This document shows positions 16,133 through 58,687 of a stretch of DNA of 64,000 nucleotides, piece by piece (within the stretch, counting starts at the first letter, position 1; every line of letters begins with the position of its first letter). The position numbers and the translations under genes were made by a program. Below the pieces are notes generated by a model, which was given only the letters and a program-made list of their open reading frames with translations, was not told the DNA's origin and searched no databases. Origin of the DNA: a virus; IMG/VR virus record IMGVR_UViG_3300031413_000624. One strand, given 5' to 3'.

Positions 16133-17371
16133 ATGACTACCACTCGTAAACCACCTTATTTGCATGCTGACGGTTCAAATTGTTGGACAAAGCATTGCTC
16201 CCGCCGCACCAAGGAAAGCAATGATCGTGCTTCCTTCTTCAAGCAGGTTGAAAAGACCCCAGCTGCGAAGCTTCCTACCAACCTTCCTCCACTGTCAGCG
16301 TTCCAGAAAGCTCACGCTGAGGGCCGTATTGAGAAGTCTGAACACCCAAATTACCCTTACGTGACCTACAAATACGCGCGTACTACGCAGTTCGCTTCTG
16401 ACTGGGATGATGTCACACTTGCTTCTCGTGGAATCATCTTTAACAAGGAAACCGGAGAAGTTGTTGCACGTCCATTTGCAAAGTTCTTCAACTACAATGA
16501 ACCTTCCGTGCCTACTGATAAACTTCATGGTCGTGTGAGCGTCACTGACAAACTTGACGGTTCATTAGGTATTGGTTACGTTGATGAGGACGGTAAGTTC
16601 AACATTGCTACTTCTGGTAGCTTTATCTCTGAACAGTCTAAACATGCTACTCGCATATACCAAGAGAAGTACGAAGGTAAATGGAATCCAAATCCAAACA
16701 TGACATACATGTGGGAAATTATTTACCCTGAGAACCGTGTTGTTGTCAACTATGGTGATGAGGATGACTTACACCTTATTGGTGCTGTCAATAAGCGCAC
16801 GGGTAAGAGCGTCCCATTAGGTGATATCAAAGAGTGGAAGTGGAAGCGTGCAGAAGAGTACAAAAACATTTCTTCTCTTGACTCTGTGCTTGCCACTCCT
16901 GACCGTGAGAACCGTGAAGGTTTCATTGTCCACTACATTGATACTGACACTCGCGTAAAGTACAAGCATGAGCAGTACTTGAACATTCACCGTGTTGCTA
17001 CTGGTGTTACTTCTAAGACTATCTGGCGTAAGATGTCTTTGGGTGAAGATATGGACAGCTGGAAGAGTGGAATTCCTGAGGAGTTCACTGACTTCATTTC
17101 TGAACGTCAGAACAAAATCCGCGCAAACTACGATAATGAAGTCAGCAAAGTTGTTGCTGACCACGCAAAGTTCAAAGCTTCTATGCCTGCTTCATATGAA
17201 CGTAAAGACTTCGCTGTTACATTGAAGAATTCTTCTGTAGTTCCAGCTGAGAATAAACCATTCATCATGAATTATGAATTCAACGGTAAAGTAGCAACAA
17301 ACGAGGTGCAAGCTCGTAAAATTTGGGAGCGCATCAAGCCTACCGATGAGGATACTTTCTGGAACATGTAA
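16133..17371 (+). CDS. RNA ligase family protein (paralog B) with N-terminal Cys-His motif
   Basis: KLDGS motif I; paralog of 4990..6120. Start MTTTRK.. chosen by analogy with MTTTRE.. of the 38971 gene; NCWTKHC motif. Confidence 0.65.
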   Translation: MTTTRKPPYLHADGSNCWTKHCSRRTKESNDRASFFKQVEKTPAAKLPTNLPPLSAFQKAHAEGRIEKSEHPNYPYVTYKYARTTQFASDWDDVTLASRGIIFNKETGEVVARPFAKFFNYNEPSVPTDKLHGRVSVTDKLDGSLGIGYVDEDGKFNIATSGSFISEQSKHATRIYQEKYEGKWNPNPNMTYMWEIIYPENRVVVNYGDEDDLHLIGAVNKRTGKSVPLGDIKEWKWKRAEEYKNISSLDSVLATPDRENREGFIVHYIDTDTRVKYKHEQYLNIHRVATGVTSKTIWRKMSLGEDMDSWKSGIPEEFTDFISERQNKIRANYDNEVSKVVADHAKFKASMPASYERKDFAVTLKNSSVVPAENKPFIMNYEFNGKVATNEVQARKIWERIKPTDEDTFWNM

Positions 17372-17372
17372 A

Positions 17373-17657
17373 TCATCGGTGAAGTAGGTAGTACGCTGCT
17401 AAAACGATAATTCCAATAGCATTCAAAGACATCAGCCCGTATCCAATGTATTTCGCTGGACGGGCTGATGTCTTTTGGTATGACCAGCTGGATAGCGTTA
17501 TGAGAAGAGCCATCAGGAAGCCCGCTCCGCTGATGATCCATTCCTGGGTAGAGAATCCTACAATGGTGAAGAAAAGAAGCGCATCAGCGTAGAGGAAGCT
17601 TACCCAGTATAAGGTTCTGTCAGGTTTGACTGTTTCTACTTCCTTTACTGTATTCAT
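17373..17657 (-). CDS. small membrane protein, uncertain
   Basis: ORF with TM helices; contains an internal hairpin at 17427-17475. Confidence 0.3.
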   Translation of the reverse strand: MNTVKEVETVKPDRTLYWVSFLYADALLFFTIVGFSTQEWIISGAGFLMALLITLSSWSYQKTSARPAKYIGYGLMSLNAIGIIVLAAYYLLHR

Positions 17658-17695
17658 GTAAGTATTAATCGGCTAATTTTGAAAAAGGGGTCAAT

Positions 17696-17716
17696 TTATC
17701 GTCGTTATGACGATAA
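17696..17716. promoter_or_regulatory. palindromic operator-like site TTATCGTC-N5-GACGATAA
   Basis: Perfect 8-bp arms; a TAGAAT hexamer 7 nt downstream (17723-17728); start of the NAD operon. Confidence 0.45.
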
Positions 17717-17763
17717 ACATGTTAGAATATCCTCAGAAGATAATAACAAAGGACACCTTCCTC

Positions 17764-56970: not shown

Positions 56971-56971
56971 C

Positions 56972-57175
56972 ATGGCAAACAATAACGAATTCACAGTTGA
57001 GAATCTGCAACGGATTATCAACTTGATGAATCACGGAAAAACTGACTTGACAGGTGTGTCGGAAATGAACATTAAGTTCGCTCCGAATGTTTCAGGGCGA
57101 ATTGTCGCTAAGAATGATGACACATTTGTTTTCGTTCCCAACAGTCACCAAGACATTGACCAATTCGGTCGCTAA
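56972..57175 (+). CDS. small hypothetical protein
   Basis: ORF, start adjacent to the upstream stop. Confidence 0.35.
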   Translation: MANNNEFTVENLQRIINLMNHGKTDLTGVSEMNIKFAPNVSGRIVAKNDDTFVFVPNSHQDIDQFGR

Positions 57176-57191
57176 GATTTAGGAGAATATC

Positions 57192-57779
57192 ATGACAAAG
57201 GGTTTGCTTATCGTTGACGTGCAGAACGATTTTATTGAAGGGGGTAGCCTGGCAGTCGCAGGAGGAGAGAAAGTCGCTCTAACGCTTGCAGAGCACCTCC
57301 TGGATGCTGATTACCATGCGCTCATCACCACTCAGGACTGGCACATTGAGCCTGGAAACCATTGGGCAGAAACTCCCGACTATGTGGACACCTGGCCTGT
57401 GCATTGCGCTGCAAACACTGCTGGTGCATCGGTACGCCCTGAGCTGGCGGCTGCCATTGTTTCCAAGGTCAGCGAACAGCGAAGCCTTCGGTATTTGCGC
57501 ATCGTCAAGGGTGAGTATGAAGCAGCTTACTCAGGTTTTGAAGGCCGCGACTTTCTTGGAGGGAATGAGAAGGTTCCTACCCTTATCCGTGAGCTTGGTG
57601 TAGATGAACTGGACATTGTAGGACTGGCGACAGACCATTGTGTTCGCGCTACTGTTCTGGACGCTCTGAAAGCGGGATTCAAGGTAAACGTCCTCACCGA
57701 CTATGTTGCAGGTGTCGACCCTGAGCGCTCCAAAGCAGCTCTTGCTGAAATGGAAACAGCAGGCGCAACTCTCGTCTAA
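57192..57779 (+). CDS. pncA: isochorismatase-family hydrolase, nicotinamidase (PncA)-like
   Basis: LLIVDVQNDF; catalytic GLATDHCV. Confidence 0.7.
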   Translation: MTKGLLIVDVQNDFIEGGSLAVAGGEKVALTLAEHLLDADYHALITTQDWHIEPGNHWAETPDYVDTWPVHCAANTAGASVRPELAAAIVSKVSEQRSLRYLRIVKGEYEAAYSGFEGRDFLGGNEKVPTLIRELGVDELDIVGLATDHCVRATVLDALKAGFKVNVLTDYVAGVDPERSKAALAEMETAGATLV

Positions 57780-57847
57780 ATCAAGATAACGAAGAAGCTG
57801 ACTGGCATGAAATACGCCAGTCAGCTTCTTCGCGTTAGGAATGAATT

Positions 57848-58687
57848 ATGGTCCAAATACAAAAATGCCGTTCAAAAAAGCACTCATTCGGTGGTTGCGG
57901 TGATCCTCGTTGCCCAGAAGGTCTTTCTATTCAAGCCAACATGGATGCAGCTCTTGCAGACAAAGATGTCATGGCATACATTGCAGCAAAACAGCTGAAA
58001 GATATTGAACCAAACATGGTCTTCGCCAATAAAGGTTTTACTGAACTCCACATTACACATAACAAAGGTACCCATGTTGATGTGTTGAAGTTCATCAACC
58101 CCAGAAAAGAAGCCCTTGAATACGTTGAATCCTTAGATCGTACCCATATTCCTTCTTTTGAAACCGTGAAAGACCTTCAAAACTACATCAACGACACGTA
58201 CAATCCATATGCTTCTATGTTTGTTCGTGAGTACAAAGGCTACGGTCCGAAGAAAACTATTACACGGTTGAGCGTAGCAAACATGGACGTTGATGCGGAT
58301 TTACGTGGAGCAGGAATCGGTTCCTATTTTAGAAAAGTTCTTCTGAAACACTGTGACGAAAAAGGATACATTGTTTCAGGGACTCCAACAAACTCAGGTG
58401 ATGGAAGTATTGAACACCATGACCACAATCATGAAGAGTTCAAACAACATGCGTTGCATCATCGTGCGCGGTTAGAGCATTTTTATGAGCGAAACGGTTA
58501 TGAGCGTAACTACGGCTCTGAACCTGTTATTCATGGCGACCAAGACTTTTGGACAAAACAACAGTTAGAGCAGAACCAACCTTGGGTTGATAAGTTCAAC
58601 AAACATGGTCAGGATTTGCTGTACGATGCTGGGGCTTTCGTCCGCTGGCCAAATAACACAGTACCCAAAGAATTGCTTGCTAAATAG
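57848..58687 (+). CDS. GNAT-like acetyltransferase paralog with N-terminal Cys3 motif
   Basis: RGAGIGSYF motif A; N-terminal CRSKKHSFGGCGDPRCPEG. Confidence 0.5.
   Translation: MVQIQKCRSKKHSFGGCGDPRCPEGLSIQANMDAALADKDVMAYIAAKQLKDIEPNMVFANKGFTELHITHNKGTHVDVLKFINPRKEALEYVESLDRTHIPSFETVKDLQNYINDTYNPYASMFVREYKGYGPKKTITRLSVANMDVDADLRGAGIGSYFRKVLLKHCDEKGYIVSGTPTNSGDGSIEHHDHNHEEFKQHALHHRARLEHFYERNGYERNYGSEPVIHGDQDFWTKQQLEQNQPWVDKFNKHGQDLLYDAGAFVRWPNNTVPKELLAK

Follow-up and report, generated by a model that had tools for sequence, protein, structure and literature searches.

The 64,000-nt viral stretch IMGVR_UViG_3300031413_000624 of IMG/VR (the window, by which the whole stretch is meant) encodes a series of functionally unrelated proteins that open with the same short Cys/His motif. 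To judge from its sequence, this module is a portable knuckle of 13-16 residues with the consensus C-[RQK]-A-K-[DN]-P-x-x-C-[RPK]-x-H-G, and it probably binds a metal. Its genes are tightly coupled to a promoter-like DNA signal, and the knuckle also occurs inside phage portal proteins. We tentatively read it as a trafficking or handling tag for effectors delivered from the virion.

Nine carriers had been counted in the initial annotation. All nine translations are as quoted there, and eight of them fit C-x7-9-C-x2-H or C-x7-9-C-x-DPRC, while the RNA ligase (C-x4-C) does not. Within the N-terminal 30 residues, C-x7-10-C-x2-H or C-x7-10-C-x-DP-x-C was found in 8 of the 76 open reading frames (ORFs) of a non-overlapping set, out of about 76 genes in the window. 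The expectation from 2000 within-protein shuffles was a mean of 0.032 and a maximum of 2 (Poisson P = 3e-17). Beyond the first 30 residues the same proteins had no match to the pattern (17,670 residues), and neither did the N-termini of 1,275 ORFs from bacterial control loci totalling 1.47 Mb. When all six frames were scanned for C-x6-10-C-x1-2-[HD] followed by at least 100 downstream residues, 12 matches appeared in the 64 kb, 8 of which were the carrier N-termini. The N-terminal cysteine module of the window carriers is a real observation. The MTTTR start common to two carriers was also confirmed (ATG ACT ACN ACN CGT); it is part of a broader trend, as carriers generally start Ser/Thr-rich and have S or T at residue 2 in 44 of 74 cases.

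Shared regulation, one of the common fates considered at the outset, has direct sequence support. The motif GTTAGnnAT-N5-ATG stands before six of the nine carriers and only one non-carrier (hypergeometric P = 2.6e-6); this coupling is new here and was absent from the initial annotation. The six genes, all without a Shine-Dalgarno sequence, encode the T4 Rnl1-like RNA ligase RnlB (GTTAGATATATCAGC, 16118..16132, + strand, with a spacing one base longer), an ADP-ribosyltransferase (ART; GTTAGATATAGAAC, 32371..32384, +, directly before the start codon), a 493-residue protein (GTTAGAAATAGAAC, 38972..38985, -), an HD-family phosphohydrolase (GTTAGTAATAGTGT, 39815..39828, +), the acetyltransferase GNAT1 (GTTAGATATAATGC, 48183..48196, +) and the GNAT-like GNAT2 (GTTAGGAATGAATT, 57834..57847, +). 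The carriers without the motif are a 224-residue protein (hyp224), the tRNA nucleotidyltransferase (CCA enzyme) and an amidoligase protein. The only non-carrier in the motif class is a polynucleotide kinase-like gene, Pnk (phrog_505; 34425..35482, +, with the motif GTTAGAGATGGTAC at 34425-34438 and the gene at 34439-35482), which has no cysteine motif.

The positions of this motif were nearly fixed in 43 non-identical metagenomic carrier upstream regions, with G at -14 in 33 of them, T at -13 in 37, T at -12 in 36, A at -11 in 38, G at -10 in 30, A at -7 in 41 and T at -6 in 28. When the ORFs of at least 80 residues behind the motif were collected from 44 loci and the window (n = 39), 33 had the knuckle, 5 had a variant Cys motif and one, the Pnk gene, had none. 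The motif position fits an extended -10 element (TG-n-TA...) with transcription starting at the ATG, and the mRNA would therefore be leaderless. GTTAGnnAT-N5-ATG thus looks like a dedicated extended -10-type promoter for leaderless mRNAs. A second and commoner start context, cGATAGAAT located 6-8 bases before the start codon and likewise without a Shine-Dalgarno sequence, was observed in many other window genes, for example upstream of 1321, 3512-4138 (-), 10542, 20983, 49052, 50560 and 63660. It resembles a -10 element of the TAGRRT type, which is found in Actinomycetota. These contexts hint that much of the genome may be expressed as leaderless mRNA by an actinobacterial-type transcription machinery. 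From these signals we infer two promoter classes, and any particular timing of the GTTAG genes would have the same standing.

The knuckle is not confined to the window. Degenerate DNA patterns for C-x-A-[KR]-[NDH]-P-x-x-C-x-x-H-G matched in 9 IMG/VR loci and at least 110 JGI metagenome loci (given L numbers below), and high-GC out-of-frame chance matches were then discarded from these. At least 44 complete proteins of about 150-500 residues bear it N-terminally, with the first Cys a few residues past the Met. Together with the window's nine they make 53 carriers, which fall into at least 37 mutually unrelated downstream families (blastp 1e-5). The initial claim that one homologous module sits on functionally unrelated proteins is supported. 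The cargo domains include ART, GNAT, NUDIX, HD, NT5C, CCA and RNA ligase, and most carriers have no Pfam match: in the metagenomic set, ART, GNAT and NUDIX were recognised in a few proteins and HD via homology to the window HD carrier, while 15 of the 20 proteins scanned gave none. A profile built from seven N-termini was further searched exhaustively against 1.84e9 representative proteins, which yielded 22 matches at E <= 1e-3, 20 of them true. In all 20, the knuckle lies at residues 3-25 of a protein of 194-317 residues. Among 74 non-identical carriers, the position of the first Cys ranges from residue 2 to 18 (median 7).

Several versions of the module can be told apart. The canonical form, C-x-A-K-[ND]-P-x-x-C-x-x-H-G, occurs in the window and many related loci. 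Variants are C-S-K-x-x-G-x-x-C-R-x-H-N (two ARTs just upstream of the window, and L114), M-C-x-R-K-P-x-P-R-C-S-S-[HD] (an NT5C nucleotidase upstream of the window, and L144; compare the window CCA and amidoligase proteins), C-...-C-[TG]-[DN]-P-x-C-P (both window GNATs, and L138) and the shortened H-x-D-G-[ST]-N-C-[YW]-T-K-[NH]-C (the window RNA ligase, L116 and L144). The loop between the cysteines measures 4 to 9 residues. A fourth Cys, 7 residues upstream, is present in several ordinary-phage and jumbo-phage copies (C-x6-C-x7-C-x2-H). The second half, C-P/R-x-H-G, resembles a rubredoxin-type knuckle turn. Between the knuckle and the effector enzyme there is usually a helical linker of 40-100 residues. 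In many carriers a helix pair HG-[AST]-phi-phi-R-M-E-x-A...D-phi-x-x-Y...E stands behind it, recognisable in the window ART and both GNATs. Catalytic-domain matches to Pfam or PHROG families in the window carriers begin only past residue about 45-115; therefore, the knuckle and the linker behind it are an add-on to the enzyme.

Selection acts on the peptide. Across 77 distinct DNA copies, the conserved Ala, Pro, Gly, Cys, His and Lys positions draw on every synonymous codon, and in ART orthologues down to 37% identity C13, K16, N17, P18, C21 and H24 are invariant while neighbouring residues drift. An explanation at the RNA level is ruled out by the codon diversity. An Rfam search and a tRNA scan of the window were both empty.

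The initial remark that this is not a described domain holds within the databases and literature searched. No family of Pfam, NCBIfam or PHROGs matched over the knuckle, and a PDB profile search found no relative among solved structures. The main text of the polyvalent-protein paper (PMC5512222) mentions neither a cysteine motif nor a knuckle, and zinc only in connection with zincin peptidases; a jumbo-phage survey (PMC7824862) mentions no cysteine or zinc knuckle either. The sole PDB match, CWYHG (CxxHG) in Rieske box II, had E = 1 and was taken as chance; the C-x-x-H-G half is alike, and the knuckle has no counterpart of Rieske box I (C-x-H). The C-[PR]-x-H-G half-site resembles a knuckle turn of rubredoxin-type and zinc-ribbon sites (C-P-x-C-G) or of the retroviral CCHC/CCCH knuckles, with His replacing Cys, but the spacing of the module fits none of these families. 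Nor do the window copies have the four ligands in two knuckles of a classical zinc knuckle or ribbon: C, C and H/C are conserved, 4-9 residues separate the cysteines, and the fourth Cys is seen only in some ordinary-phage copies.

The context that bears most directly on function lies outside the window. Apart from acidic proteins of jumbo-phage type, internal knuckles were all found in C-terminal extensions of portal proteins, among the matches listed. Nine distinct portal proteins of two Pfam families carry one: Portal_Mu in L008, L011, L128, L156 and L171, and Phage_portal_3 in L010, L112, L121 and L170. The knuckle usually comes after an acidic residue and directly before the appended C-terminal module. 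In three of the nine this module matches a PBECR nuclease model: the match of L011 is to PBECR3 and exceeds the curated threshold, and those of L008 and L128, to PBECR1/2, fall short of it. Portal- and MuF-PBECR fusions have been interpreted as probably packaged and injected (PMC5512222). The packaging and co-injection that the initial annotation suggested are plausible and gain circumstantial support from a knuckle placed between the portal domains and the appended module. Portals that seemed to end in a bare knuckle were withdrawn, as those ORFs run off contig ends.

As for the acidic proteins, IMG/VR and metagenome jumbo-phage contigs (L006, L007, L012, L136 and L172) encode long proteins (up to 1,435 residues) that are acidic and of low complexity and have an internal C-x6-C-x7-C-x2-HG. 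Sometimes two consecutive genes both have this four-Cys version. The acidic carrier of L006 has no homologue in GenBank phage records.

Taken together, the knuckle may be a portable trafficking or handling tag for virion-delivered effectors, which is the reading we tentatively favour while giving it less than even confidence. It is favoured because the only physical context available puts the marker inside the capsid at the portal, heading a nuclease that is thought to be injected, and because the marker is N-terminal, precedes dozens of unrelated effector domains, occurs in many copies per genome and is co-regulated. Its placement is either N-terminal or at the N-boundary of the effector module. 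The carrier repertoire (ART, PBECR, GNAT, NUDIX, amidoligase and KTSC) is that of delivered phage effectors, and the window ART matches Alt-like PHROGs. Polymorphic toxins and T4 internal proteins likewise specify their delivery route through an N-terminal marker that variable effector domains have in common. Under this proposal, tagged proteins would be kept close to the portal inside the capsid and would exit together with the DNA, the tag possibly being a small, fast-folding leading end. Its role might fall in processing or ejection, or equally after delivery. The carrier genes would form one expression class, defined by the -10-like element at a fixed distance and by leaderless mRNAs. We infer the packaging and ejection steps throughout.

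A bolder version seems possible but somewhat doubtful. Here the knuckle and the GTTAGnnAT leaderless promoter would define the injected-effector set, or 'ejectome', of a huge-phage lineage (up to about 880 kb), the knuckle being the leading end that keeps cargo at the portal and then drives it into the host like a ratchet, and Mu-like and SPP1-like phages would have reused it as a portal-nuclease joint.

A number of observations weigh against virion delivery. The canonical knuckle was absent from GenBank phages (50,697 records) and PLSDB plasmids by tblastn. Only three ligands (C, C, and H or C) are conserved in the copies of the window and of huge genomes. An AlphaFold2 model of the ART from a 7-sequence alignment gave an acceptable core and low confidence over residues 1-80, with a predicted local distance difference test score of 45-58 at the N-terminus. 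No capsid, portal, terminase or other structural gene was seen in the 84 kb examined, and carriers in the window and on related giant contigs sit among tRNA arrays and accessory genes rather than beside recognisable head genes. Finally, the knuckle is strictly conserved in the portal fusions. The fusion itself already guarantees capsid entry there, yet the knuckle is kept, which argues for a job beyond mere recruitment.

Known systems offer partial parallels. The capsid targeting sequence (CTS) of the T4 internal proteins and Alt is a short N-terminal element on unrelated proteins, an ADP-ribosyltransferase among them. It sets a common fate, packaging and injection; it is not Cys/His-based, and it is cut off by the prohead protease at a defined site (L/I-x-E type). 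The packaging of Alt is summarised in PMC5512222. The knuckle shares with the CTS the extreme N-terminal position on unrelated proteins (residue 2-18 over the 74 carriers), but it is Cys/His-based and has no sequence similarity to it. Alignments past the knuckle show no conserved cleavage-like motif.

The polyvalent proteins and portal- or MuF-fused PBECR/2H effectors (Iyer et al. 2017, PMC5512222) are alike to the portal fusions of the related loci, and the cargo overlaps in ART, PBECR, amidoligase, KTSC and NUDIX, so that the repertoire of delivered effectors is present here as well. By comparison, the window carriers are free-standing and single-effector, and no zincin peptidase domain was seen in them. 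Fusion of an effector to a portal, MuF or virion domain was found only in the nine portal loci named above. The third parallel is with the markers of polymorphic toxins and secreted effectors. MIX, LXG, PAAR and prePAAR mark or direct such proteins from the N-terminus, and the enzymatic domains at the C-terminus are hypervariable. They resemble the knuckle in being conserved, N-terminal, present in many copies per genome and joined to unrelated C-terminal domains; the knuckle is far smaller (about 13 residues) and occurs in a phage context. No recognisable secretion apparatus or immunity genes linked to the carriers were found in the window and its +/-10 kb flanks.

Of the alternatives, the one that survives best, and still rather unlikely, is that the basic Cys/His knuckle attaches its enzymes to RNA or DNA, be it the ribosome, tRNA, the nucleoid or the phage genome, and so gathers them at one hub after synthesis or delivery, any packaging being a side effect of riding the DNA. 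Short CCHC and CCCH knuckles typically bind single strands. The ligands are flanked by conserved basic residues (R/K at 2, K at 4 and R/K at 10), and RNA or tRNA is the substrate of many cargoes, namely the RNA ligase, the CCA enzyme and the PBECR RNases; Pnk, of the GTTAG motif class, also works on RNA ends but has no knuckle. Binding to nucleic acid would also account for the knuckle that is kept in portal fusions, where recruitment is superfluous. On the other hand, the cargoes include enzymes of small molecules and proteins (HD, NUDIX, NT5C, ART, GNAT and amidoligase), for which a shared address is not obviously useful, the spacing is unlike that of known RNA-binding knuckles, and no PDB relative turned up.

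An improbable account is that of a stability or regulatory switch, in which a metal- or redox-sensitive N-terminal cap would control the activity or lifetime of co-expressed enzymes, serving as a protease shield or as a point of contact for the ClpC-like or Hsp70 chaperones that the element itself encodes. The window does encode its own Hsp70/DnaK (7272-9125) and a ClpC/ClpB-type double AAA+ protein with a UVR motif (27677-30175). Metal sites that are labile or regulatory typically have three ligands, the strict N-terminal position suits the logic of a degron or cap, and the carriers are co-regulated. The portal fusions are left unexplained by such a switch.

Even less probable is a hitch-hiking 5' cassette, in which promoter, leaderless start and the first ~20 codons spread together, the peptide being kept for leaderless expression with no common fate. 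The very tight coupling to GTTAGnnAT-N5-ATG would agree with it, as would the Ser/Thr-rich starts (ATG ACN/AGC). But the knuckle is internal in portal proteins with no promoter in front, hyp224, the CCA enzyme and the amidoligase protein carry it without the motif, the first Cys stands anywhere between 2 and 18 codons from the ATG, and the free choice of synonymous codons at the conserved residues places the constraint on the peptide. Lastly, a chance or compositional artefact, or a ubiquitous known zinc ribbon without enrichment here, can be dismissed as next to impossible: the motif is short and the PDB search yielded just the chance CxxHG match in a Rieske protein, but the shuffles and control ORFs exclude chance, no Pfam, NCBIfam or PHROG family covers the module, and the profile search retrieved 20 true N-terminal matches at E <= 1e-3 among 1.84e9 proteins, so that the ubiquitous, unenriched ribbon which the initial annotation had itself named as the fatal outcome was not what was found.

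The module is best filed as an N-terminal effector marker. Its coupling to the promoter is closer than expected, and it is widely distributed, so far in uncultured material. Should the tag specify a delivery route, the injected or co-handled effectors of uncultured huge phages could be read off the sequence, and the resulting focused list of candidate enzymes for host takeover and anti-defence would consist mostly of proteins without a known domain. The conserved joint in portal-nuclease fusions would be explained as well, and a small portable tag for loading capsid cargo would be at hand. Whatever the mechanism, the promoter-like motif defines a regulon, supports widespread leaderless expression and makes it possible to correct start codons.

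Individual carriers in the window illustrate these features. The enzyme labels of the initial annotation agreed with Pfam and PHROGs for the T4 Rnl1-like ligase, ADPrib_exo_Tox, PolyA_pol/CCA, GNAT1 and Amidoligase_2 with KTSC, while 'ppGpp hydrolase' (HD/HD_4) and GNAT2 had sub-threshold matches only. The ART (32385..33293, +) carries the knuckle CYAKNPDTCKNHG at nt 32421-32459 (residues 13-25; narrow knuckle hidden Markov model (HMM), E = 2.2e-8), ahead of the Pfam domain ADPrib_exo_Tox at residues 93-290 and an Alt-like ART match in PHROGs from residue 59. In the HD carrier (39829..40731, +), the knuckle CRAKHPETCWKHG occupies nt 39850-39888 (residues 8-20; narrow HMM E = 2.9e-9), and the sub-threshold HD and HD_4 matches begin at about residue 82. 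Its relatives keep the knuckle at 71% (L180) and 42% (L114) identity; one at 37% identity (L120) has the variant C-x5-C-x2-HG. The carrier hyp224 (21573..22247, +), of unknown function, has CQAKNPETCKYHG at nt 21582-21620 (residues 4-16; narrow HMM E = 1.2e-8) and matched no family in Pfam or PHROGs. It overlaps at its start with the DUF4126 gene upstream.

The 493-residue carrier (37490..38971, -) has the knuckle CRAINKAACRYHG at nt 38915-38953 (residues 7-19), and phrog_2319, a family of unknown function, matches residues 118-491 only. Alignments with its homologues in actinophages and in Vibrio and Aeromonas phages begin only at query residue ~106-155. The homologue in Gordonia phage Stormageddon has no knuckle, and the neighbouring ART and RNA ligase of that phage have none either. 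A relative in L124, 44% identical, keeps CQARNPEFCRYHG. A sub-threshold EAD9 match on this protein was set aside, as it did not recur in nine similar N-termini.

Two carriers have the 'MC' variant. The CCA enzyme (46166..47605, +) shows it as CRNKEEGGRRCTDH at nt 46169-46213 (residues 2-15), with PolyA_pol at residues 91-217; it resembles MCRRKPYPRCSSH of the NT5C nucleotidase in L206 and MCERKPGPRC in L144, both of which stand behind the GTTAG motif. The CCA gene itself is preceded by a GATAGTATATAG box and a Shine-Dalgarno leader instead of GTTAG. The 1015-residue KTSC and amidoligase carrier (52503..55550, +) has CNAIRDGGQRCAVH at nt 52506-52550 (residues 2-15), KTSC at residues 210-264 and Amidoligase_2 at residues 707-924, and a GATAGCTATAAAG box with a Shine-Dalgarno leader lies upstream. 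A second, internal Cys/His cluster of this protein, CDCADYQENYDCIH at 54063-54104, is unrelated in position to the N-terminal knuckle.

The two GNAT carriers are paralogues with Cys3 variants. GNAT1 (48197..49012, +) has CKAANPAACTDPRC at nt 48224-48265 (residues 10-23), followed by the helix pair KKVLLQAFESALSEGDYQKMFNARDEM, which is found again behind canonical knuckles in many metagenomic carriers; a variant of the same type, CQAKGGPAACTNPNCP, adjoins canonical knuckles in L138. Database gene calls exist for a 271-residue and a 227-residue version of GNAT1, and the shorter starts 44 residues late and misses the knuckle. The GTTAG motif supports the long (271-residue) form. GNAT2 (57848..58687, +) has CRSKKHSFGGCGDPRC at nt 57866-57913 (residues 7-22) and a sub-threshold Acetyltransf_7 match.

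The RNA ligase RnlB (16133..17371, +) has the shortened variant HADGSNCWTKHC at nt 16163-16198 (residues 11-22), with RNA_lig_T4_1 at residues 98-281 and phrog_562 at residues 62-402. Because this variant, H-x-DG-[ST]-N-C-[YW]-T-K-[NH]-C, recurs in L116 and L144 behind the same upstream motif, the ligase is a derived member rather than a chance look-alike. The GTTAG motif also supports the start at 16133 over that at 16058. Upstream of the window, in the 10 kb before position 1 (L206), there are three more carriers with the GTTAG motif, at 2534-3343, 7161-8189 and 8220-9257; these are the NT5C nucleotidase and two ARTs (CSKPKGAYCRLHN and CSKAPGEHCRLHN), and a PARP+WGR protein is encoded nearby.

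Exact copies of window proteins were found on contigs of 828-883 kb in several independent metagenome assemblies from different samples, for example ENA ERZ27247405 k141_830180 (878,479 bp). There was no nucleotide match in the 50,697 GenBank phage records (megablast with 20 kb of the window), no relative in IMG/VR and no close relative in GTDB. The window's GyrB and GyrA are encoded at 59027-63579; the best GyrA identity among the genomes retrieved from 185,579 GTDB species was about 45%, mostly to Propionibacteriaceae, in a scan that needs shared 8-residue words and is not a phylogeny. The window and its flanks also encode DnaG, RNase H, three N6/N4 DNA methylases, PARP, several ARTs, NERD, PTH2, two Rnl1-like ligases and two Pnk-like kinases, and no ribosomal or other core cellular genes were found there. 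Related giant contigs with the same motif (725-791 kb) contain tRNA arrays with duplicates, 13 tRNA genes within 10 kb on L107 and 20 within 8.8 kb on L108; the array of L107 includes a CTA-anticodon suppressor-type tRNA, and carrier genes are interspersed among the tRNAs. A related 13.7-kb contig (L120) has a tmRNA, and sampled stretches of the giant contigs encode proteins that resemble, by eye, cysteinyl-tRNA synthetase (CysRS), ThyA and DHFR. A cellular origin, such as a small episymbiont, is disfavoured by the GyrA identity of at most ~45% to GTDB genomes, the tRNA arrays with duplicates and a suppressor, and the tmRNA in related contigs. The element is likely a huge phage or a phage-like element. 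The phage genome described as the largest has 841 kb and 55% GC (bioRxiv 10.1101/2025.01.14.633092); the present element, at about 880 kb and 45% GC, is distinct from it and, if a phage, larger.

Two further observations concern other genes of the window. A dense RNA-repair set is present at 4990-6120 (-), 13186-14088, 16133-17371, 34439-35482, 45458-46066 and 46166-47605, comprising two T4 Rnl1-like ligases, two Pnk-like kinases, a small KxDG ligase-like protein and the CCA enzyme, with the knuckle on some of them only. The genes at 42619-44025 and 44147-45268 are paralogues that share an N-terminal segment resembling, by eye, a Flp/pilin-type signal (…RGAIDLASI… and a hydrophobic stretch); the first of them contains DUF285 repeats, and similar N-termini occur in L124 and L147.

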